NCBI GenBank assembly: GCA_963826785.1
Contig: CAWGYD010000008.1
Location: 192,001 to 256,000 of the forward strand
Direction: 5' to 3'
Length of the DNA: 64,000 nt
Source of the DNA: an uncultured delta proteobacterium
GTDB lineage: Bacteria > Desulfobacterota > Desulfobacteria > Desulfobacterales > Desulfosalsimonadaceae
Below, in pieces: positions 4,203-19,117 of the stretch. The position numbers and the translations under genes are program-made. The first letter of the stretch is position 1, and the number at the start of each line of letters is the position of its first letter. The notes under the pieces were generated by a model that saw only the letters and a program-made list of their open reading frames with translations, did no database searches and had not been told where the DNA came from.

Positions 4203-7200
4203 ATGCAAAAGGTCAAATTATCAAGTTATTTTTTGGTTTTGGCTTTTGCTGTTTTTGCCTTGGCCCTGGGCGTCGACCAGGCCGGTGCGAAAAAAGCATT
4301 GAACGACAATACGAATCTCACAGACAAGGCCCTTAAACATCACGGGAAGGTCACCACAACAGAACAAAAGACCGCTGCCGCCACGTTCCAGATGCAATAT
4401 CAGCCCGCTTTAATGGCCGGGGCCGCCGCTCCGGCAGCCCCGGATCCAGGCGGTATTCCGCATTATTTCGGTCCCTATCCAAACTGGGCCAACAGCCCCA
4501 TGCCCACGGGCGCGGTCGGCAGCGTCACCTTGATTGATCCGGGCGCCGGTTATACCGCCCCGATCGTTACCATTACCGATCTTTACGATTCCGCGGGGGC
4601 AGATGGCGCCACGGCAGCAGCCGTTATTGATCCGGTCTCCGGCGCGATTACCGATATTGTTCTTTTAAGCGGCGGCGCCGGCTATACCGCCCCCATCGTT
4701 ACCATTACTGACGACACCGGCGCGGGCGCTTCCGCCGCGGCCGCATTGGATCTGACAAGCCTCACCGGAGGCATCCGGAAATTCATGGACGCCCTGCCCG
4801 GCCTGACATCTTCCCAAGCCAACCTGCTCGGACAGTACATCCCCGTCGCAGTCGCCGATACCACATCATATTCTGCAGGCGGCGCCGGCTATACATCAGC
4901 ACCGACGGTGGCCATCACCGATGCCACCGGCACCGGTGCGACCGCCATCGCGACTTTGAACGGCGATAAAGTGATCAGTGTCGAAGTCACCAATGCCGGC
5001 AGCAACTATTCTCAAAACCCGCTGGTCGTCTTTTCCGGCGGCGGCGCCGCATCCCAGGCCGTGGCCATTGCCACCGTGGATCCCACAACCAAAACCGTTA
5101 CCGATGTGACCCTGACCGGCGCCGACTACTATGAAATCGGGGTCGTCGATTTTAACGAAAAGATGCATACGGACCTGCCGCCCACGCGAATCCGGGGATA
5201 TGTGCAGATAGCCACGCCAGTGGTGCCGGGTTCCCACATTGCGCTGACCGACCCGAACGGCAATCCCGTAACGCTGCCCGACGGATCGCAGGCATATGCC
5301 GTGGATAATCCCCACTACATGGGGCCGGTCATCGTCTCCAGGCGCAACGTGCCGGTGCGGGTGAAATTTTACAACCTGCTCCCCACGGGTGCCGGCGGCA
5401 ACCTGTTCCTTCCGGTGGACAAGACGGCCATGGGGGCGGGAACAGGCCCCCTCGGCGGAACTGAGACGTACACCGAAAATCGCACCGTCAGCCATCTGCA
5501 TGGCAACAACGGCGTCTGGATCAGCGATGGCACCCCCAACCAGTGGATCACGCCGGCCGGCGAGTCCACTTCTTATCCCAAGGGTGTGAGCGTGCGGAAC
5601 GTTCCCGATATGCCCGATCCCGGCGATGGTGCGGTAACACTGTATTACACCAACGCGCAGAGCGCCCGCCTGGAGTTCTACCACGACCATGCACTGGCCA
5701 TCACCCGCCTCAACGTCTATGCCGGTGAAGCCGCACCCTACCTGATCACCGATGACGTCGAGGAAGATCTCATCAACGGCACCAACTACACCGGCGTCAA
5801 CCCCGGCGGACTCAACGTGCTGCCCGACATCGGCATTCCCCTGGTCATTCAGGACAAGGGATTTGTGGATGCAAGCACAATTTCCTATCAGGACCCCACC
5901 TGGAACTCGGGCACCACCGCCCCGGCCCCCAATACCGGCGACCTCTGGTACCCGCATGTCTACATGCCGGCCCAGAATCCGTGGGACCCGTCCGGAATCA
6001 ATGCGTTCGGCCGCTGGCATTACGCCCCCTGGTTCTGGCCGCCTGCAACGGATCTGATGTATCTGCCGGTGGATAACGAGTATTATGACCCGATCAATGC
6101 GCCCTGGGAGCCGCCGCAGCGGCCCGCCACCCCCAATCCGTCCATGGTGGGCGAGGCCTTCATGGATACCGCGGTGGTCAACGGCACCGCCTACCCGTAC
6201 ATGGAAGTGGAGCCCGAAAGCTTACCGTTTCCGCATCCTGAGCATTGCCAACGACCGGTTTTTCAACCTGCAGTTTTATGTGGCCGATCCCGCCGTGACC
6301 ACCGCCGACGGACGGACCCATACCGAAGTCAAAACGATTCCCTCCGCGGGGATGACAGGTCTCCCGGCTGACTGGGCGGCCGGCGTGCCCGATCCGACCA
6401 CCAAGGGCCCGGACTGGATTCAGATCGGCACCGAAGGCGGCTTTATCCCGGCCCCGGTGGTGATCCCCTCACAGCCCATCACCTGGAACATGGACCAGAC
6501 CGCATTTAACTTCGGCAATATGGATCAGCATTCGCTTCTTGCTGGGACCGGCTGAGCGGGCGGATGTCATCGTGGACTTCTCCCAGTTTGCCGGAAAGAC
6601 GATCATCCTTTACAATGATGCGCCCGCGGCTTTCCCCGCATACGACGCGCACTATGACTATTTCACCGGGGACCCGGACAACACCGATATCGGCGGCGCC
6701 CCGACCACCCAGGCCGGATTCGGCCCCAATACCCGCACCCTTATGCAGATCAGGGTCGGCACCGATGTGACCACGCCCACTGCAGATGTGACGCTTGCCA
6801 ACCTGCAGACCGTGTTTGCCAAGACTGCGGCGAAGCAGGGGGTTTTTGAGGCGTCCCAGGACCCCATCATCATGCCCCAGGCGGATTACAACACCGCGTA
6901 CAATGCGAGTTTCCCCAGCAGCCCGACAACGGCTTATGTGCAGCTCAGCAATTTCCAGAAAAGCTTTCAGCCGATCGATTCATTCGGCAATTTTTTGAGC
7001 CCGGTGACGCTTCCCCTGCAGGCTAAAGCCATCCAGGATGAAATGGGGGAGGCTTACGACAATGAATATGGACGGATGAGCGGGATGCTCGGGCTGGAAC
7101 TGCCGGTGACGAACTCCACTACCCAGCAGTTCATGCTCTATCCATTCATGTCCCCGCCCGTCGACCTCATCAAGGGTTCGATGTACGCCGACCCCGTCGG

Positions 7201-8689
7201 TTCGTTAGCGGACGGCACCCAGATCTGGAAAATCACCCACAACGGGGTGGACACCCACGTAATCCACACCCATCTGTTCAACGTGCAGATGGTCAACCGG
7301 GTCGCATGGGACGGTGCACTCATTCCGCCCGATGCCAACGAGCTGGGCTGGAAGGAAAGCTTCCGGGTCAATCCGCTGGAGCACACCATCGTTGCCCTGC
7401 GGCCCCTGCTGCCCAATGCGCCTTTCCAGGTTCCCAACAGCATCCGTATGATCGATCCGACCAAACCGGATGGATACATGCTGATGGGGCCGCCCACGGG
7501 ATTCATGGATCCGCTGGGCAACCCGGTGACCGTCATGAACCACCTGGTCAATTACGGATATGAATACATGGAGCACTGCCACCTGCTGGCCCATGAAGAA
7601 ATGGACATGATGCATGCCATTTCCATCAGCGGCCCGCCGACGGCGCCTTCCGACCTGAGCGCCGCCCTGGTTCGGCAACGGCAAAAAACGCCGGGTCGAC
7701 CTGGCATGGCTGGACAATTCGGTCAATGAAACGGCGTTCGTGATGGAGCGGGCCACCAGCATTGCCGGTCCCTGGGCCGTCTTGGCGACCCTCTCCACAG
7801 ATGGAAACGCGATGGGTCCGATGTTGTATCCGGATGCCATCGGAAACACCAACTTAACCTTCTATTACCGGGTGAAAGCCATCAACGTGGTCGGTGATTC
7901 CGACACTCTCGGTTTCCCCACCATCAATAGCGAATCCGCTTATACTGCACCGGTCAGTTTTTCATCGGCATATCCCGATGAAATCGGCGTTTTTCAAAAT
8001 GGTACATGGTATTTAGACAAAAATGGAAACGGTGTATTCGACAGCGGAGTGGATGCCATGTTCCATTTCGGAATAGCCGGAGACATGCCGATCGCAGGCG
8101 ACTGGAACGGTGACGGATATGACGAAGTAGGCGTCAAACGCGGCAACAGGTGGTATCTGGATTATAATGGCAACGGTACATGGGATGCCGGTGATGTCAC
8201 TATCCCCCGTTTCGGCTTGGCTTCTGATGTTCCCATCGTGGGCGACTGGAACGGTGACGGAAAAGACGATATCGGCGTCAAACGCGGCAACAGGTGGTTC
8301 CTGGATTACAACAACACAGGCGCCTGGGATACCGGCGATATTACCTATAACAACTTCGGGCTGTCTTCTGATCTACCTGTCGCGGGCGATTGGAATGCCG
8401 ACGGGTATGACGAAATCGGCGTCAAACGCGAACCAGGTGGTACCTGGATTACAATGGCACCGGTGCCTGGGATGCCGGTGATGTCACCTATAACAACTTC
8501 GGGCTGTATTCTGATCTACCTGTTGCAGGCGATTGGAATGCCGACGGGTATGACGAAATCGGGGTGAAGCGCGGAAGCAAATGGTTCATGGACTACAATG
8601 GCACAGGGGCCTGGGACTCCGGCGATATCACCTATGCCAGCTTCGGACTGGCTTCTGACCTGCCTGTCGTCAGTAAATGGGCACCCTGA
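4203..8689 (+). CDS. Large secreted multicopper oxidase with FN3-like domain and C-terminal FG-GAP-like repeats; split by about 4 frameshifts (ORFs 4203-6371, 6085-6555, 6539-7729, 7740-8567, tail to TGA 8689)
   Basis: Signal peptide; Cu motifs HLHG, YHDH, HVIHTH, HCHLLAHEEMDMM; the pieces read continuously across the frame switches. Confidence 0.85.
7975..8680 (+). repeat. About 5 tandem ~147-bp coding repeats (GDWNxDGxDEIGVKRGNRWxLDYNGxGxWDAGD)
   Basis: Near-identical nucleotide and peptide units visible in the sequence. Confidence 0.85.
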
Positions 8690-10721: not shown

Positions 10722-10882
10722 TCTGGTTATCCGGAATACTCCAGTCAGAATTCCGGATTCAAAGTCCCCCTTTGGAAAAGGGGGATTTAGGGGGATTTGG
10801 CGCCTCCCGGGAGAAATCCCCCCCGCCCCCCTTTTCAAAAGGTGGGAGAAAAACGAATACTGGATTTTTCGGGATAACCAGA
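10722..10882. mobile_element. MITE (~161 bp) with 24-bp imperfect TIRs and 9-bp TSD, containing a REP-like hairpin
   Basis: TCTGGTTATCCGGAATACTCCAGT vs reverse complement of right end TCTGGTTATCCCGAAAAATCCAGT (21/24); AAAAAACAG at 10713-10721 and 10883-10891. Confidence 0.75.
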
Positions 10883-10893
10883 AAAAAACAGAT

Positions 10894-10930
10894 TTGACTT
10901 TAAAGAGTAACACCGTTACTGTAACAGTGT
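10894..10930 (+). promoter_or_regulatory. Putative sigma70 promoter with overlapping palindromic operator (TetR)
   Basis: TTGACT-N17-TACTGT; imperfect palindrome ACACCGTTACTGTAACAGTGT at 10910-10930. Confidence 0.55.
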
Positions 10931-10963
10931 CGTTAAAGATAAACTTCTCACGGAAATCCGACC

Positions 10964-11633
10964 ATGCCCAAAACCCAGCGAAAGCCCGAAGAAATCGAAG
11001 CCGTAAAGGAGCAGATGCTGGATCATGCACTCGAGCTGATCGCCGAATCAGGATACAAAGGCTTCAGCATGCGCAAGCTCTCCGCCCGGCTGGGGATTGC
11101 GGCGAAAACCATTTACAATTATTATGTCAACAAGGATGAGATCTACCTGGTCATCCTGACCCGGGGATTCGAATACCCTTTACGACACCTGCCTGGCCGC
11201 CGGCCGCCCCGCAAAAAACCCCATGGACAGGATCGCCGCCATGAGCCGTGCATTCGTGGACTTCGGCATCGAACACGCAAACCTGTACAACCTGATGTTC
11301 ACCTGGCATGTGCCCAAGTTCAAGGATTACCTGGGCACGCCCATGGAAGGCGCCGCCCAGGTGGAACTGGAAACCGCACTGAAGCTTTCCGAACTGTTCA
11401 TTGACGCCATCAAGGCGTGCGGGCAGGGTTCGGCACCCCTGTCTGATGAGGACGCCCGCTTCCTGATGATCCAGATCTGGGTACAGGGGCACGGGTATGT
11501 GGCAGGTCTCAACAACACCCTGCTCGACTACATGCACGAAGCCCCGCTGACGATCAAGGACCGGCTGGTGGAATCCATGATGCAAAACATCAGGTCCGCT
11601 TTGAAGGCGAACTTTATAAGGAGCATTAGTTGA
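10964..11633 (+). CDS. TetR/AcrR-family regulator (frameshift near 11178)
   Basis: GYKGFSMRKLSARLGIAAKTIYNYY HTH; C-terminal half continues in ORF 11223-11633. Confidence 0.85.
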
Positions 11634-12544
11634 AAACCCCGCTCATACTCGAAATCAAGGGAAACTCGCTGGATGATGGACCGGGCATCCGATCGGTGGT
11701 CTTTTTCAAGGGATGTCCCCTCTCCTGCGTCTGGTGCCACAACCCGGAAAGCAAGAAAACGGATGCGGAGATCGGGTTTGAGGAGAAAGAATGCGTGGGG
11801 TGCAATACCTGTATGGAAACCTGTACGGAAAAGGCGCTTTCCCGAAATAACCCTTACTTCGTGGACCGCAGCCGCTGCAGCCTGTGTTTTGCCTGCACGG
11901 ACGCCTGCCCCTCCGGCGCATTGAGCCGCATCGGAAAATCCATGGGCGTCGATGAGATTGCGGCTCAAATCATCCGGGACAAGCCATTCTTCGATACCTC
12001 CGGCGGCGGGGTCACCTTTTCCGGAGGGGAACCCACGCTGTTCATGGAGTTTGCCGGGGAACTGGCCAAAACCCTCAGGCAAAGCCATGTCCGTGTCCTG
12101 CTGGAAACCTGCGGCCTTTTTGATTTCAGCAAATTCAAAGACTATCTTTATCCCTATCTGGATGAGATATACATCGACATCAAGCTGATGGATGACGCGC
12201 TTCACCGGCAGCACTGCGGTGCGGGCAATGCGGTCATCATGGACAATTTCAGAAAAATTCATGCCTTGTCGCAAAACGGCGGCATCCCGGTCACGCCCCG
12301 CACCCCCCTGATTCCCGGGATCACTGACACGACGGAAAACATGTCCGCCATTGCCGAATTCCTGATATCCTGCGGCGCCAAACAGGCCCGGCTGCTTCCC
12401 TATCATCCCCTGTGGCAGGAAAAAAACCGGAAGATCGGCATCGGCAGGACAAAAAATCAAGACCCGGCCATGGACCGCTGGCTGGACAACCAGGTGCTGG
12501 AGCAATGCCGGGCTGTTTTCATGGAAGCCGGGATTAAACTGTAA
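11630..12544 (+). CDS. Glycyl-radical enzyme activating enzyme (radical SAM with 2x[4Fe-4S] insert)
   Basis: DGPGIRSVVFFKGCPLSCVWCHNPE; two CxxCxxCxxxC clusters; GGVTFSGGEP. Confidence 0.95.
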   Translation: MKTPLILEIKGNSLDDGPGIRSVVFFKGCPLSCVWCHNPESKKTDAEIGFEEKECVGCNTCMETCTEKALSRNNPYFVDRSRCSLCFACTDACPSGALSRIGKSMGVDEIAAQIIRDKPFFDTSGGGVTFSGGEPTLFMEFAGELAKTLRQSHVRVLLETCGLFDFSKFKDYLYPYLDEIYIDIKLMDDALHRQHCGAGNAVIMDNFRKIHALSQNGGIPVTPRTPLIPGITDTTENMSAIAEFLISCGAKQARLLPYHPLWQEKNRKIGIGRTKNQDPAMDRWLDNQVLEQCRAVFMEAGIKL

Positions 12545-12550
12545 GGGAGA

Positions 12551-12779
12551 ACACCCCCCTGCGCCCCCCTCAAGGGGGGATTACAATTTCCCATCTCGAG
12601 GGAGGATTAAAGCTACGATTTCCCCTCAAGGGAGGATTAAAGCTGCAATTTCCCCTCTCAAGGGGGGATTAAGCTACAATTCCCCTCTGAATTGGGGGGT
12701 TATGGTACTTACGCAATTCCCACCTCAAATGGGGGCGCACACAAACAATTCCCCCCTTGAGGGGGGTCAGGGGGGTGTT
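12551..12779. repeat. REP-like hairpin array (about 7 units of TTCCCC(C)TC(A/G)AGGG(A/G)GGA) bounded by ACACCCCCCTG / CAGGGGGGTGT inverted ends
   Basis: Direct reading; ~30-bp period. Confidence 0.8.
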
Positions 12780-12844
12780 TGGACACAGAAAAAAAAACAT
12801 TCTTCCATTTTTTTAGAATCATCAACCATCAACGGAGGTGATTT

Positions 12845-15800
12845 ATGCTGCTCAAAACCGATCCCGCAACAAGTGTGACGAACGGCTCCCAAAGCAAGAC
12901 CCTGACCCATCTTTTGACCAAAACCCTGCTGCGGACCATGGCGGCCACCTTCAACCTCCGGCCCGGACTGAAGAAATACCTGAAAACCGATGCCGGCTGG
13001 TTCGACTTCACCGTGGGCATCCGCACGGAGAGCCGCTCGGTGGAGACGGCCATCCGGTTTCGCGGCGGCAAGGTCGGCATCCTTAAAGAACATCCCCGAT
13101 GACTGCGAGGTCTGCCTGATCTTTTCGTCGGACGGCGCCATCCGCAAACTGCTCTCGGCCACCCCCACCGAGCAGATCTTCATGATCATGAGAAGCGAGT
13201 TCCGGACGGTGGGGAACCAGTCCTATATGAACCTGTTTTTCTATTTCCTGTCGCTGCTGCTGCACAAGAAGCAGAAGAAGCTGATGCTAAAAGAGCGCGA
13301 CACGGATCAGAAAAACCTGTTGAAGGCATCGCCGAGCGCCCGGTCCGACCTGAGCAACGAACTCAAGCAGCGAAGCGCCTACCGCATGCAGGCGGAAAGC
13401 ATCGACCCGGGAGTCAGGTTCCTTCAAGACCCGTATCTTTCCGCCTATGCCATCGACGATTTCCCCAGGATCAAGGATTTCCTGGAGATCCATTTCACGG
13501 CCCGGGCCGAAGTCTGCCCGGAGCGGCCGAAGCTGATCACCGAATGGTACAAGAAAAACGGGTTTGAAAAAGACAGCCGCGGCAATGACTGGATTCCCGA
13601 ACTGCGCCAGGGGCATGCCTTCAAGTACCTGATGGAAAACCGCAAACCCATCATCGGGAAGAATGACCTCATCGCGGGCACCACCACCGCAAAGGATATC
13701 GGGGTGGTGGTATACCCGGACAGCCACGGCACCATGATCTGGAACGAACTGCTCACCGTCCCCCACCGGACCTTGAACCCCTATGATCTTTCCGAGGAAA
13801 CCGCCGATTTGCTCCACCGGGAGGTGTTTCCCTTCTTTATCCGCCGCAATTTCAAGGAATGGGTCCGGGACAACTATGATGCCCCGCTCTGCCAGGCCAT
13901 CGACGAACGGTTTGCCGTCTACTTCATCTGGAAGCAGGCGGCCCTGTCCCACACCATTCCCGATTTCCCCAAGATCATGGCCAAAGGTGCATCCGGCATC
14001 ATCGAAGAAATCAAGGGCCATTTGGCCAGACCGGGCCTGGATCCGAAGCAAAAGGCCACCCTGGAAGCCATGGTGCTCTGCCTGGAAGGGCTGATCGCCT
14101 ATGGTCGAAAAACCTGGCCGGGCAGGCGAAAGCCGATGCGGCAAAAGAAACAGACCCCGTGCGCCGGAAAGAACTGGAGCATCTGGCAAAAATCTGCGCG
14201 CAGGTGCCCGAGCACCCGGCCCGCACCCTGGACGAGGCGGTCAACGCCATGTGGATCACCTGGGTGGGGCTGCACATGGAAAACACCAATGCGGGGCTTT
14301 CCCTGGGCCGGCTGGACCAGTGGCTGCAGCCCTATTTCGCCGCGGACATGGAAAAAATCGACGATCCGGGCGAGCGCCAGGCCTTTATCAAGCATGCCAT
14401 TGAAATGGTGGCCTGCTTTTACATGCGCTGCACCGACCACCTGCCGCTGACCCCGGACCTGGCCAACTGGTACTTCGGGGGAAGCTCCTCGGACCAGGCC
14501 ATCACCCTGGGCGGGATCACCCCGGAAGGAAACGACGCGGTCTGCGATATGACCTACATCTTTTTGAAGGTCACGGAGATGCTCTCCATCCGGGACCCCA
14601 ACGTCAATGCCCGCTTCCATCCGGGGATCAACAGCGATGCCTACCTCAAACGCCTGTGCGAGGTCAATCTCATCACCGCGGCCACCCCTTCCCTGCACAA
14701 CGACAAGGCAATCATGGCATCGCTTGCAGAATTCAATTACGCCCCCGAGGACCTGCGCAACTGGTCGGCGACGGGGTGCGTGGAGCCCACCCTGTCAGGC
14801 CGGCACATCGGACATACCAATTTCCAGATGATGAACATGGTGGCGGCCGTGGAAATGGCGCTGCACAACGGCTATCATCCGCCCATGAACTGGAAGCTGG
14901 GGCCGGACACCGGCGAGATCGCAGATTTTGCCACATTCGATGATTTCTTCACCGCTTTTACCGAACAGTTCAAGTTCCTCATCGACCACTCCATCGCATA
15001 CAACAACATGCTGGGCCTTGCCCACCAGTACATCCGGCCCACACCGCTCCTCTCGTCGCTGATCGAGGATTGCATCTCCAAAGGCGCGGACGTGACGCAC
15101 GGCGGCGCACGGTACAACAGCTCCGGGGCGGCCTGCATCGGGCTCGCCGATGTGACCGACTCCATGATGGTGATCAAGAAATTGATTTATGATGAGAAGA
15201 AGATCGATTTTACCCGGCTGAAAAAAGCGGTGGACGAAAATTTCGAAAGCGACCCGGCACTGCATGCCATGGTGACCAAAAAAGTGCCGCTGTTCGGATC
15301 GGGAAGCGAAGAGGCCGTGGCCATGGCCGACCGGATCACCAAATTCGCCCACGACTATTACGGCAGCCACGTAAACTACCGGGGCGGGCCGTACACGGTG
15401 GGGTTCTGGTCCATGTCCAACCACGTCATCTATGGGACCTTGAGCTCCGCCCTCCCCTCGGGCAAGCTCTACGGGAAACCCTTCACCCCCGGACTCACCC
15501 CGGAGCCCCACGCATCGAGCAGCCTGCTGGACAATATCCGGGATGTGGCCCGGCTCAACCCCCAATACATCAACAACAACATCGCCTTTAACGTCAAGGT
15601 GGTCCCCGGCGGCGCCGACACCCGTGAAAACGTCATCGCCCGGATGTTCTCCTACACGAAGACCTTTTTCGACCTGGGGGGCATGCAGATGCAGATGAAC
15701 GTGGTCACCTCCGAGACGTTAAAAGACGCCATGGCCCACCCGGAAAACTACCGCAACCTCCTGGTGCGCATCTCCGGATACAACGCCTATTTCGTGACCT

Positions 15801-15853
15801 TAAACCGCGATCTGCAGATGGAGCTGATCGAGCGGGCGGAATACGGGTTGTAA
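12845..15853 (+). CDS. Glycyl-radical enzyme (PFL-like, eliminase-type motif) with N-terminal SCP2-like extension; frameshifts near 13085 and 14105
   Basis: TGCVEP Cys loop; LLVRISGY Gly loop; SLGRLDQ; ORFs 12845-13102, 12990-14450 and 14159-15853 join to ~1000 aa. Confidence 0.9.
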
Positions 15854-15866
15854 AAGGGGGGAAAAA

Positions 15867-17087
15867 ATGGCCACGCTCGAATGCAACCGCAGGCACTTTC
15901 TGAAACTGACCGGCGCGGCGGCCGCCGCGGCGTTATTGCCGGCCTGCAGCCACAGCATGAAGCGGCTGGAGGGCGAGGCAAACGCCATGCCGTTGATCGA
16001 TGCCCCGCATGCAAGGGCCTCCGGGGCCTGGATCGCCAAAGATGCGGGGGATGCCGAGTCCTATCCGCTCTTCAAGCAGGCCCTCGAGGCGGCAACCGAT
16101 TTTTCCTGGCTCTCTCCGGGCGACCCGGTTTTTGTCAAGATCGCCATCAACTCGGCAAACCCCTATCCGGCCACCACCGACCCCTGGGCGCTTTCCTCCA
16201 CCATCCGGCTTCTTAAGGAAAAAGGGGCCGGCAAGATCATCGTCGGCGACTCCAGCGGGGTCGAATCGGTGCACTGGACCCGGGATAAACAGCGGGGATC
16301 ATCACGCGAGAACTGCGAAAAGGCCGGGCTCCTCAAGGTGATCAACGAAAACGGAGCCGAGGCGGTCTTCTTCGAGGAGGCGGGGTATGATGCCTTCATC
16401 CCCGTCTTGCCCCGGGGCGCCCACCACTGGAAAGAACCGCTCTGGATAACCAGGGCCGTGGCATCGGCCGCGCACATCGTCTACCTCCCCCGGGTCAGCT
16501 CCCATGTGATGGGCGACATCACTTCGGGGATGAAGATCGGCGTCGGGTTTTTGCGGGAAGACAGCCGGCGAATGTTTCATTCCGGCGGGGACGATTTTTA
16601 TGCCATGTACGAGGAGATCAACCACGTCCCGGAAATCGCGGACCGGCTCCGCCTCACCGTTTCCTCGGGGCGGAAAGTGCTGGCCACCTTCGGCCCGGAC
16701 GACGGGCATGTCACCGCCCCCGCGTTCGCCCCGGTGATCGCCTCCGAAGACCTGCTGTCCCATGAAATGGCCGCCTATGCCTGGCTGTGCTACAACCGCG
16801 AGTTTGAAACCTCCTTTTTCGACGCCGGGTTCACCGGCGGCCTGACCAAACGGCGCTCGTTCATCAACCGGGGGTTTGTCTGGTACATCTGGGACGAGGG
16901 CAGTTTCTTCGGCACCCCGGGGATTCCCCTTTATATCGCGGGAAACCTCTACGCCCACCCCTCGATTTTAAACGCGGCAAAGCGTCTGGGCGGCCGGCCT
17001 TCCCGAATCGATTTCGAATCGGTAAACGCCCCGGCAAAAGCATCAGAAATGGCCGCCTACATGCAGCGGCGGATAACGCAGGGTTAA
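15867..17087 (+). CDS. Tat-exported DUF362-family lipoprotein
   Basis: NRRHFLK twin-arginine motif, LPAC lipobox, VFVK...ATTDP...GAGKIIVGDSSG. Confidence 0.7.
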   Translation: MATLECNRRHFLKLTGAAAAAALLPACSHSMKRLEGEANAMPLIDAPHARASGAWIAKDAGDAESYPLFKQALEAATDFSWLSPGDPVFVKIAINSANPYPATTDPWALSSTIRLLKEKGAGKIIVGDSSGVESVHWTRDKQRGSSRENCEKAGLLKVINENGAEAVFFEEAGYDAFIPVLPRGAHHWKEPLWITRAVASAAHIVYLPRVSSHVMGDITSGMKIGVGFLREDSRRMFHSGGDDFYAMYEEINHVPEIADRLRLTVSSGRKVLATFGPDDGHVTAPAFAPVIASEDLLSHEMAAYAWLCYNREFETSFFDAGFTGGLTKRRSFINRGFVWYIWDEGSFFGTPGIPLYIAGNLYAHPSILNAAKRLGGRPSRIDFESVNAPAKASEMAAYMQRRITQG

Positions 17088-17104
17088 AGTCGGAATCACC
17101 GCTT

Positions 17105-17217
17105 CAAGTCCCCCTTTTCAAAGCCACGCTCTTTGTAAGCCTGCCTCGGGTATCTGAAAATCGCGACAATCGCTTTAAAGTCCCCCTTTTTTTCAAAGGG
17201 GGATTTAGGGGGATTTA
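17105..17217. repeat. REP-like element AAAGTCCCCCTTT..AAAGGGGGATTTAGGGGGATTT (same family as 10761-10798)
   Basis: Near-identical motif at 10761-10798 and 17177-17217. Confidence 0.7.
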
Positions 17218-17229
17218 AAATGGTAATTA

Positions 17230-19117
17230 GTGTTTGAACGAAAACAATTTTAATCAATAAAAAGCGATGGCTATATATTTAGTATGGTATCAAGAATTTT
17301 AAAAAAATTGTCACTTATTCGATTTTTTCACTTGATTTTTATCTTGTACTAATTGTATAATATCCTGAATTTTTTATTTAAAATCTTATAATCCGGAATC
17401 CGGTGAAACGCTTCCAATCAAAAATCTTCAGGAAAAAATATGCGAAGAGTTATCGACCCCCAAATGAAAATCGGTGAAAAAGCAATCGCCAGCATCAAAT
17501 TTGATCTCCGCTGCCGGGACGAAATCCCCAAACTGCTTCGCGGGTTGCAGGCCATATACTGCAACCGGGAACTGCGCGAAAAGGTCTTCGCCGTTCTCAC
17601 TGAGATCATCCCGGATCATATCGATCCCAACAATGGCCGCAAGGGCATGGATCTGTGGAAAATATTCGTCCTGGGCACCCTGCGGCTCAACTGCGACTGG
17701 GATCATGATAAACTCCATGACATCGCCAATAATCACAAAACACTCCGGCAGATGCTCGGCCATGGCACAATGGATGCCGATTATCAGTATTCACTGCAAA
17801 CCCTCAAGGAGAATATCTCCTTGTTTACACCGGAGGTGTTGGACAAAATCAATCAGCTCGTTGTCCAGTACGGTCATCAGTTGGCCGGTAAAAAAAAAGA
17901 TCGAAAATTGGCCGGAAGCTGTGATTCTTTCGTCGTTGAAACCGATGTTCATTATCCAACTGATATTAATCTACTTTTTGATGCCATGCGAAAAATGATC
18001 ACGCTGATCATGCGTATCTGCGAACATATGGAGATTACTGATTGGCGCCAGGGCGAACACCATATTCGTAAAGCAAAAAAATTGTATCGAAAAGCCCAAC
18101 GGTTAAAACACTCCTCATCAAAAGATAAGACCAAAAAGGCCGAAAGGGCACAACTGATCATTGATGCTCACAATGAGTACATCAATCTGGCCCGCTTTTA
18201 TGTTGATAAAATTAGGCAATCGTTCACTTTATTGCTGACATCCAATATCCTCACCCAAATGAAAATAGCTGAAGTAAAAGATTATATGGTTCATGCCGAA
18301 AGGCAGATCGATCAGATCTGCAGAAGAGTTGTTCAAGGCGAAACGATCCCCCATCACGAAAAGGTGTTCTCACTCTTTGAGCAACACACCGAATGGATCA
18401 GCAAAGGCAAAGCCGGTGTTCCGGTGGAACTCGGTTTAAAGGTTTGCATTGTCAAAGATCAATACAATTTCATTTTGCATCATCATGTGATGCAAAATGA
18501 AACCGACGACAAAATCGTCGTTTCCATTATCAAAGAAACGCAGCGCAGATTTGCCGATTTTAAAAATTGCAGTTTCGACAAAGGTTTTCATAGCCCAAAC
18601 AATCAGAAAGAATTGGCAATTCTGCTGGACAGAGCCGTGCTTCCCAGAAAGGGGAGGCTTTCGGCTATTAATAAAGAAATCGAGAACTCCGAAGAATTTA
18701 AAAAAGCGAAAAGAAAGCATTCGGCAGTTGAATCCTCGATCAATGCACTGGGCAATCACGGACTGGACAGGTGCCGGGACCATGGCATTGAAGGTTTCAA
18801 ACGCTATGTCGCCTTGGCCGTTGTAGCACGCAATATTCAGCTCATCGGTCATATGTTACAACAAAAAGAAGTCACTCGGTTGCGCCGCCAGGAAAAGAGA
18901 GAACGAAAAGCAGCTTAAACAAGCGATATTTGAGGCACCGGCAGGATACCTGCGTTCAAAAATAAGAAATGGGCCGAAAATCATAGCTTTTTGCGATATT
19001 GAAAATAGTTTTGACCAATGCCGCTTGGATCTCATGCTGAATTTCCCCTAGCCGGCACAAAAATCCGGCGAAATTTTCTGCCGGAAAAATTAAAAATCCG
19101 GGTTTTCGTTCGGGCAC
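17230..19117 (+). mobile_element. Insertion sequence (ISNCY/IS5-like DDE) with 16-bp imperfect TIRs and probable 6-bp TSD TAATTA
   Basis: GTGTTTGAACGAAAAC vs reverse complement of right end GTGCCCGAACGAAAAC; TAATTA at 17224-17229 and 19118-19123 (palindromic, so it could instead be part of the TIR). Confidence 0.85.
17440..18918 (+). CDS. DDE transposase (ISNCY-like)
   Basis: DSFVVETDVHYPTD, SFDKGF, RKHSAVESSIN; intact 492-aa ORF. Confidence 0.9.
   Translation: MRRVIDPQMKIGEKAIASIKFDLRCRDEIPKLLRGLQAIYCNRELREKVFAVLTEIIPDHIDPNNGRKGMDLWKIFVLGTLRLNCDWDHDKLHDIANNHKTLRQMLGHGTMDADYQYSLQTLKENISLFTPEVLDKINQLVVQYGHQLAGKKKDRKLAGSCDSFVVETDVHYPTDINLLFDAMRKMITLIMRICEHMEITDWRQGEHHIRKAKKLYRKAQRLKHSSSKDKTKKAERAQLIIDAHNEYINLARFYVDKIRQSFTLLLTSNILTQMKIAEVKDYMVHAERQIDQICRRVVQGETIPHHEKVFSLFEQHTEWISKGKAGVPVELGLKVCIVKDQYNFILHHHVMQNETDDKIVVSIIKETQRRFADFKNCSFDKGFHSPNNQKELAILLDRAVLPRKGRLSAINKEIENSEEFKKAKRKHSAVESSINALGNHGLDRCRDHGIEGFKRYVALAVVARNIQLIGHMLQQKEVTRLRRQEKRERKAA

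Follow-up and report, generated by a model that had tools for sequence, protein, structure and literature searches.

Which reaction is catalyzed by a glycyl radical enzyme (GRE) that carries an additional domain in front of its catalytic core, and on what substrate? The question is raised by an operon in a 64,000-nucleotide stretch of DNA from an uncultured delta proteobacterium (GenBank assembly GCA_963826785.1, contig CAWGYD010000008.1, positions 192,001 to 256,000; hereafter, the window, with G000 denoting its source genome, C numbers the contigs of G000, and L and P numbers the relative loci and proteins of this analysis). An earlier interpretation of these letters, the sequence-only reading, described a run of genes for a TetR-family regulator, a GRE activase, a GRE of about 1000 aa, and a DUF362 protein with a twin-arginine translocation (Tat) signal, and this order holds, with all four genes forming one series on the plus strand (Table 1). 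We conclude that this GRE, with an N-terminal domain of predicted SCP2 (sterol carrier protein 2) fold, represents a real and, as far as searched, unpublished variant of the GRE eliminases, hereafter, SCP2-GRE. With a probability of roughly 0.55, in our estimate, it would perform a radical 1,2-elimination on a lipid-type substrate held or delivered by the SCP2 module, most likely dehydrating a diol, either long-chain or with a glycerol backbone, to give an aldehyde; cleavage of an ether would be a close variant.

The locus encompasses the features that define the GRE superfamily, namely, a C-terminal Gly loop, a Cys loop, a 10-stranded barrel, and a cognate radical S-adenosylmethionine activase, here with a ferredoxin-like insert (Pfam). 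The single-Cys TGCVEP loop and the RISGY Gly loop noted previously are both in place, and the eliminase-type character ascribed to the former was borne out in an alignment of 188 full-length relatives (the open reading frames (ORFs) of genome loci plus the best 120 proteins), all 188 of which contain GCVE. His370, Cys645, and Glu647 (relatives are numbered after L041) are likewise invariant in this set, and His370 aligns with His166 of propanediol dehydratase. The model of a full-length homologue (predicted local distance difference test (pLDDT) 91.1, predicted template modelling score (pTM) 0.92) resembles propanediol dehydratases, Archaeoglobus fulgidus PFL2, and glycerol dehydratase to about the same degree, with 28–30% identity. 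In the parts of a 2026 review considered here, the CxE-type motif is defined for eliminases (section 5.6) and shared by isomerases, and in glycerol dehydratase Glu435 deprotonates the C1 hydroxyl while His164 protonates the leaving hydroxyl (PMC13450708).

Three intact homologues were scored against the NCBIfam models, and none reached a cut-off. L041 reaches 491.8 bits vs 678.2 for the glycerol/propanediol dehydratase model (TIGR01774, PFL2-3), 372.6 vs 1050 for CutC (TIGR04394), and 395.8 vs 1100 for HypD (NF043068), and the HpsG model gives 357.9 vs 1000. The residues that confer specificity are replaced as well. Positions His281, Ser282, Tyr339, Asp447, and Tyr640 of 1r8w, which we take to bind glycerol, align with Ala, Gly, Asp, Asn, and Trp, and the choline-pocket Asp and Phe of CutC are replaced by His and Asp. 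The position 16 residues after the Cys is Gln or Met in the 188 relatives, not the Tyr of HypD, where the carboxylate-binding residues include Tyr450 (PMC7077986). As for the C-S lyases IseG, IslA, and HpsG, in which the relevant passage of the review has two Arg and one Gln anchoring the sulfonate, IseG Arg187 and Gln191 (numbering of PMC13450708) align with Ala and His. These comparisons suggest that the GRE works like an eliminase or isomerase and belongs to no characterized family, so that the sequence-only claim of an uncharacterized enzyme stands over a fit to a known one. Because His281, Ser282, and Tyr339 become Ala, Gly, and Asp, the pocket would open, and it looks more open on one side.

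The extension and the core form a single chain in the relatives: these are single ORFs of 962–1076 aa, 186 of the 188 also align to the first GRE piece of the window, and 58/62 non-edge metagenome ORFs carry the N-terminal domain. This argues for the fusion proposed previously over a separate, unrelated ORF. The same reading had suggested an SCP2-like fold for the extension. The Pfam SCP2 profile (PF02036) detects 20 of 68 members at E≤0.1 (best 5e-5), mostly below the Pfam cut-off, and a PDB sequence search with the domain reached sterol carrier proteins only at E of about 0.7–1 (best 0.65). The SCP2 identity thus rests on the fold search, because the two sequence searches did not establish it by themselves. 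Using an AlphaFold model of the L041 domain, a homologue of the window domain (pLDDT 86.4), Foldseek placed UbiJ-SCP2, AF1534, and the SCP2 domains of alkylsulfatases at the top (E 2e-6 to 4e-5). In VIA-align, ten SCP2-type chains, all from SCP2-family proteins or SCP2-bearing alkylsulfatase types, scored Z 8.3–11.9, with the next group at 6.8; the best match was human SCP2 (Z 11.9, root-mean-square deviation 2.5, 109 aligned residues). The predicted model contains the five-stranded sheet with packed helices typical of this family, and the SCP2 proposal is, therefore, carried by structure comparison. Among PDB entries, the alkylsulfatase SdsA1 with dodecanol is one precedent for an SCP2 domain that serves an enzyme by binding a chain. 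The module described here may hold a lipid ligand, and a hydrophobic substrate is plausible. In the Atlas, the SCP2 share was 15% in one cluster, and no clue was obtained for DUF362.

The domain profile matched 458 representatives at E≤0.001 and is found in 43 of 301 genomes of the phylum; the SCP2-GRE domain occurs in 21/24 genomes of the family to which the window belongs. Cultured hosts include Desulfatibacillum alkenivorans DSM 16219 and Acididesulfobacillus acetoxydans. Many of the weaker profile matches are stand-alone proteins of 141–181 aa. Among ten stretches around such matches, seven (L127–L133), which represent a sister clade, have the order GRE, SCP2 gene, activase, with the GRE in two pieces in one case and an intervening gene in another; of the other three, one consists of an SCP2 gene and an activase on a 3.6-kb contig, and two have no GRE. 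In addition, one partial protein (P0253) carries the SCP2 domain fused C-terminally to a GRE. Thus, three architectures link module and enzyme: N-terminal fusion, separate gene, and C-terminal fusion. A tree separated fused from split forms with support 100, although it was built by a quick method, with long outgroup branches and without characterized GREs, and gives no order of events.

When the complex of the split pair of L128 was predicted, it reached 0.91, vs 0.00 for the best of 3 controls, where the score mark is reached by 116/157 solved complexes and 2/215 mismatched pairs, a calibration that holds roughly for a complex modelled on a relative with author-built alignments. The model runs agree in at least 74% of contacts, with a partner pLDDT of at least 76. 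On the GRE side, the predicted interface includes W101, E103, L104, R110, and P131, invariant in fused and split forms, and on the SCP2 side, an invariant Gly-Asn. It also touches the short helix between strands 2 and 3, before strand beta3 (residues 331–336, four contact residues). This helix fits the cap helix that, in the part of the review dealing with benzylsuccinate synthase (BSS), forms one wall of the substrate channel (PMC13450708). Overall, the model supports, but does not show, docking of the separate SCP2 protein on the GRE.

Genes near the GRE were counted within 5 kb in 108 distinct genome loci (10 duplicates removed), where the counts are lower bounds given the many contig-edge loci, and in 80 metagenome loci. 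The activase is present in 76 genome and 67 metagenome loci, and a TetR gene in 46 and 26, respectively. The only catalytic genes that recur across phyla encode a classical and an extended short-chain dehydrogenase/reductase (SDR), sometimes fused; the classical SDR is found in 16 genome and 12 metagenome loci, and the extended SDR in 14 and 6. Zn alcohol dehydrogenases, acyl-CoA synthetases, an aldehyde oxidoreductase, class III aminotransferases with DUF6206, and PigE-like reductases appear in a few loci each. Such neighbours would fit a long-chain carbonyl product, but they are common in these hosts. Identification of the extended SDR as OleD, HpnA, or a PRK07201-type reductase was rejected, with all scores below cut-off. 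No microcompartment shell genes were noticed among the recurring neighbour clusters, for which no dedicated search was made. G000 itself encodes, at C8:26061-28154, C1:392389-394455, and C4:46278-48359, three copies of a protein of about 700 aa with an acyl-ACP (acyl carrier protein) reductase/PigE-like domain, homologous to a GRE neighbour in L009.

The reaction we favor for this oxygen-sensitive enzyme would proceed without O2, as follows. The activase would install the Gly radical, as established for GREs, and the resulting Cys thiyl radical would take a hydrogen from the carbinol carbon of a lipid that the SCP2 domain holds at the mouth of the active-site channel. The Glu of the CxE motif would then deprotonate the hydroxyl next to the leaving group, and the conserved His would protonate the leaving group. 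The substrate would most likely be a long-chain vicinal diol or a glycerol-backbone monoalkyl or monoacyl lipid, with water leaving, both likelier than an alkyl ether or a sphingoid-type amino alcohol. The product, a long-chain aldehyde or ketone, could pass to the neighbouring SDRs and then to beta-oxidation. In favor of the scheme, G000 contains loci resembling acyl-CoA synthetases (roughly 24), acyl-CoA dehydrogenases (21), and enoyl-CoA hydratases (16).

Several observations weigh against this scheme. A shared fold shows no function. Because Asp447 becomes Asn or Gly and Tyr640 becomes Trp here, diol binding would differ from the known type. At the Tyr339/Phe395 position, the Asp found in 176 of the 188 near relatives becomes Asn or Thr in the wider clade, in which one subclade has no His and two proteins have no catalytic Cys; because these positions vary, more than one substrate is likely in the wider clade. 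Most loci have no recurring catalytic neighbour, and lipid genes are common background in the hosts. The split-type operons L127–L133 have metallophosphoesterases, DUF6765, and lipoprotein-like genes on their flanks, and neither TetR nor SDRs. To these are added the rough calibration of the docking score, the location of most predicted contacts on the N-terminal helices (residues 98–143), and the three frameshifts that the window copy carries within 3 kb.

The contact map bears directly on the alternative that survives best, namely, that the SCP2 module is structural, covering a hydrophobic patch or tethering the enzyme like the gamma subunits of BSS and 4-hydroxyphenylacetate decarboxylase (HPAD), and that the core acts on a small polar substrate. 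In the sections of the review that describe these enzymes, the dimer interface lies in the N-terminal helix region, and the gamma subunits, which serve solubility, bind nearby (PMC13450708). Because most contacts fall near this region, a structural role of the SCP2 module keeps some probability. Such a role would also accord with the lower conservation of the domain compared with the core (mean identity 43% vs 67%) and with the presence of SCP2-like folds in Eis-type acetyltransferases (VIA-align). However, the predicted contacts reach the cap helix, the top ten VIA-align matches all belong to the SCP2 family or to alkylsulfatase types bearing it, and the residues of the small-diol pocket are replaced by smaller ones. 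We therefore regard a purely structural module as a real but minor possibility.

A different doubt concerns the window copy and not the family. Compared with its relatives, the GRE has an additional base near 13090 and two more near 14105, and tetR, the homologues of which beside GREs are single ORFs, contains one frameshift near 11175; none of these breaks lies in a long homopolymer. Because of the three frameshifts, the activity of this copy is uncertain. The sequence-only reading, which had joined the GRE into a protein of about 1000 aa, was right about the length, as judged by the relatives, but the window GRE is not one ORF, the frameshifts were not flagged, and the N-terminal motifs that it quoted straddle the first GRE break. 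The copy could be a recently inactivated pseudogene, its job being done by an intact paralogue on C1 (1013 aa, 54% identity to the window GRE), and an insertion sequence (IS) transposase does follow the operon. Against this, the window GRE has kept every one of the 229 columns that at least 98% of the 188 aligned relatives conserve, and breaks also occur in at least 6 of 90 orthologues elsewhere in the assembly, an undercount, given that the method scored the window locus itself as intact. A complete ORF of at least 960 aa is present in 65 of the genome loci sampled (the best 80 of 184), with most of the rest ended by contig ends. Moreover, the window activase is unbroken, and G000 has only two clear activases, this one included, for its five GREs, three of which are more distant. 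Inactivation is, accordingly, unlikely, and the frameshifts are probably sequencing or assembly errors, which is likelier than decay.

Quite unlikely, in our assessment, is a narrower variant of lipid cleavage, in which a long-chain amino alcohol of the sphingoid-base type would be the substrate of a C-N lyase activity that releases ammonia as CutC frees trimethylamine. The Asp at the Tyr339/Phe395 position could bind an amine, and class III aminotransferases, DUF6206, and PigE-like reductases lie near the GRE in 3–4 of the 108 genome loci. Thr658 presumably corresponds, by its spacing from the Cys, to CutC Thr502, and the neighbouring SDR resembles eukaryotic 3-ketosphinganine reductase. That SDR, however, was rejected as a 3-ketosphinganine reductase, scoring 127 bits vs a cut-off of 400 for the bacterial KdsR, with no such reductase in its best 60 PDB matches; furthermore, the Asp is the residue that changes in the wider clade, and position 370 is His, not the Asp of CutC.

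Finally, a GRE of the fumarate-adding or formate-lyase type, with alkanes, alkenes, or long-chain 2-oxo acids as substrates, along the lines put forward for Archaeoglobus PFL2, could be imagined from hosts such as Desulfatibacillum alkenivorans and Desulfosudis oleivorans and from the best PDB match of the C-terminal piece, A. fulgidus PFL2, for which a role as a methylalkylsuccinate synthase (MASS) has been suggested, but is very improbable in view of the CxE motif and the single Cys, where pyruvate formate-lyase has a Cys-Cys pair, the position of MASS, BSS, and pyruvate formate-lyase among the weakest PDB matches, the formate-lyase score (TIGR01255, 114.1 vs 994.2), and compact relatives such as L003 that leave no room for small iron-sulfur (FeS) subunit genes, no cluster of which was found among the recurring neighbours of at least 90 aa (shorter ORFs were not searched), as the sequence-only reading had also stated for the window.

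The closest known systems delineate what is distinct in SCP2-GRE. Glycerol dehydratase 1r8w and propanediol dehydratases 5i2g and 9rco have the same fold (TM 0.93–0.95 over the target, 28–30% identity) and share with the window family the GCVEP loop and the His at the His164/166 position, whereas dehydratases of the 1r8w type have no reported accessory subunit, and the window family has an extra SCP2 module and differs at five pocket residues. A. fulgidus PFL2/PflD (2f3o), the function of which is debated, is the best sequence match of both the C-terminal piece of the window GRE (E 7e-89) and the first 400 residues of a split GRE (E 4e-69). At the positions of His281/Ser282 and Tyr339 its residues are small or polar, as in the window family; unlike that family, the protein is 776 aa long, has no SCP2 domain in the chain, and keeps Asp at 447 (29% identity). 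BSS, MASS, and HPAD likewise have an accessory module on the catalytic subunit, but theirs are FeS proteins resembling high-potential iron-sulfur proteins or rubredoxin, whereas the window family combines a predicted SCP2 fold with a CxE eliminase-type core. According to the parts of the review that treat these enzymes, BSS beta and MASS beta act as gates to a hydrophobic channel for the substrate, the eliminases listed act on small polar substrates, and the accessory subunits listed are only FeS or rubredoxin-like (PMC13450708); a word search of that review found none of 'SCP', 'sterol', or 'carrier'. The SCP2 modules of UbiJ, SdsA1, Pisa1, and YjcS, the top structural matches of the N-terminal domain, have 8–17% identity to it and sit on unrelated catalytic cores. 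No solved GRE-SCP2 structure was found among the Foldseek, VIA-align, or full-length structure matches, and no description of the family in the literature within a scope that excludes subscription journals and supplements, which could hold a sequence-similarity network cluster or a mention.

Several side observations concern SCP2 and GRE genes in other arrangements. P0190 and P0227 are GRE-like proteins without the catalytic Cys and a normal Gly loop that keep the SCP2 domain, and at L129:3515-5974 a GRE-like copy with the same losses lies directly before an intact GRE; all could be pseudo-enzyme partners. L063, L069, and L070 contain tandem SCP2-GRE paralogues with one activase or none nearby, possibly forming heterodimers or splitting specificity. 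A separate gene for a 118-aa SCP2-like protein precedes a thiamine pyrophosphate-dependent enzyme in L018, in L135, and at G000:C4:335454-337621; it adjoins a Zn alcohol dehydrogenase in L018 and L135 and is divergent from the GRE operon in L018.

The DUF362 protein had been proposed as a periplasmic partner in the pathway, and examination of neighbourhood conservation does not sustain this role. The window DUF362 has no tblastn match in the best 80 genome loci or the 80 metagenome loci, and DUF362-family genes, of different subtypes, lie within 5 kb in 2/108 genome and 2/80 metagenome loci, that is, as an occasional neighbour and not a core part. Two of these loci (L011 and L130), scanned with Pfam, gave no Tat match. 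Five genomes of the family encode a 56–74% identical DUF362 on a contig other than that of SCP2-GRE. We therefore rejected DUF362 as an obligatory partner; a weak link remains in L011, L130, and L216, where such genes directly adjoin the GRE or the activase. A Cys after the Tat signal, also present in close homologues, makes the protein a probable lipoprotein; no PDB sequence match was found at E≤1.

The predicted TetR operator consists of two 11-bp boxes of the TAAC-N3-GTTA type with 14-bp spacing, and the box is found upstream of 29/52 homologous tetR genes vs 40/13,888 background windows of 133 bp. In G000, the top matches of a position weight matrix are the site at 10908-10932 and a site before a paralogous tetR on C3. 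In other genomes, 15/16 pattern matches lie within about 2.1 kb upstream of SCP2-GRE; only this position is informative, the raw count of 18 not being clearly above the reversed-pattern control of 14. These results point to a conserved TetR operator, and TetR likely controls the GRE operon, in which the activase start overlaps the end of tetR by four bases. The paralogous tetR also carries the double operator and stands at the head of an acetoacetate-decarboxylase-like gene, an extended SDR, and an SDR (L167, G000:C3:168721-172195), where the extended SDR is a 43–46% identical homologue of the extended SDR that neighbours GREs. The acetoacetate-decarboxylase-like gene was rejected as a general partner, with no match in any GRE locus and one close homologue in 40 relatives. 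Several genes of L167 are frameshifted, and a glycoside hydrolase family 3 glucosidase follows further on.

Table 1. Features of the SCP2-GRE operon and its immediate surroundings (window coordinates)
Feature	Position	Strand	Basis or remark
Predicted TetR operator	10908-10932	+	two 11-bp palindromic boxes, just 5' of tetR
TetR-family repressor	10964-11633	+	PF00440 (TetR_N) and PF13305 (TetR_C_33) in two frames, break near 11175
GRE activating enzyme, intact	11630-12544	+	TIGR02494, 277.9 bits vs cut-off 174; Radical_SAM and Fer4
Array of short palindromes resembling repetitive extragenic palindromes or miniature inverted-repeat transposable elements (REP/MITE-like), intergenic, outside the system	12550-12779	.	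direct and inverted repeats
GRE, all	12845-15853	+	three pieces, frames +2, +3, +2
SCP2-fold N-terminal domain (predicted) and linker helix of GRE	12845-13340	+	homologue model; frameshift near 13090
GRE catalytic core	13341-15853	+	PF02901, PF01228; frameshift near 14105
GRE catalytic positions	His 13950, Cys 14777, Glu 14783, Gly 15776	+	TGCVEP loop (Cys, Glu), RISGY loop (Gly)
DUF362 protein with Tat signal, probable lipoprotein	15867-17087	+	DUF362 88 bits, TAT_signal 30 bits (Pfam)
IS transposase, directly 3' of operon	17440-18918		DDE, weak Pfam match

Around the operon, further REP/MITE-like palindromic repeats lie at 10722-10882 and 17094-17228 of the window, and one core motif of such repeats occurs 228 times in G000. 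A low-GC stretch at 18–26 kb opens at the IS transposase, and 4203-8567 encodes, broken into several frames, a long protein that looks secreted, ends in C-terminal repeats, and has motifs labelled multicopper-oxidase-like by inspection. A generic promoter and terminator scan stayed at chance level.

In its boldest form, which we put forward tentatively, the enzyme might be the founding member of a lipid-cleaving radical class, an O2-free ether or amino-alcohol lyase that, in anoxic sediments, takes the chain off alkylglycerol ethers or sphingoid bases, the SCP2 carrier being a new kind of GRE subunit that feeds this chain into the active-site channel. A clade this widespread, in which a lipid-carrier module is retained either within the enzyme or as its partner, would bring a new type of subunit to the GREs, and the conserved operator would make TetR a ligand sensor for finding the substrate. 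If the lipid assignment is true, SCP2-GRE is a candidate for how anaerobes open the backbones of polar lipids, such as diols, ethers, and amino alcohols.

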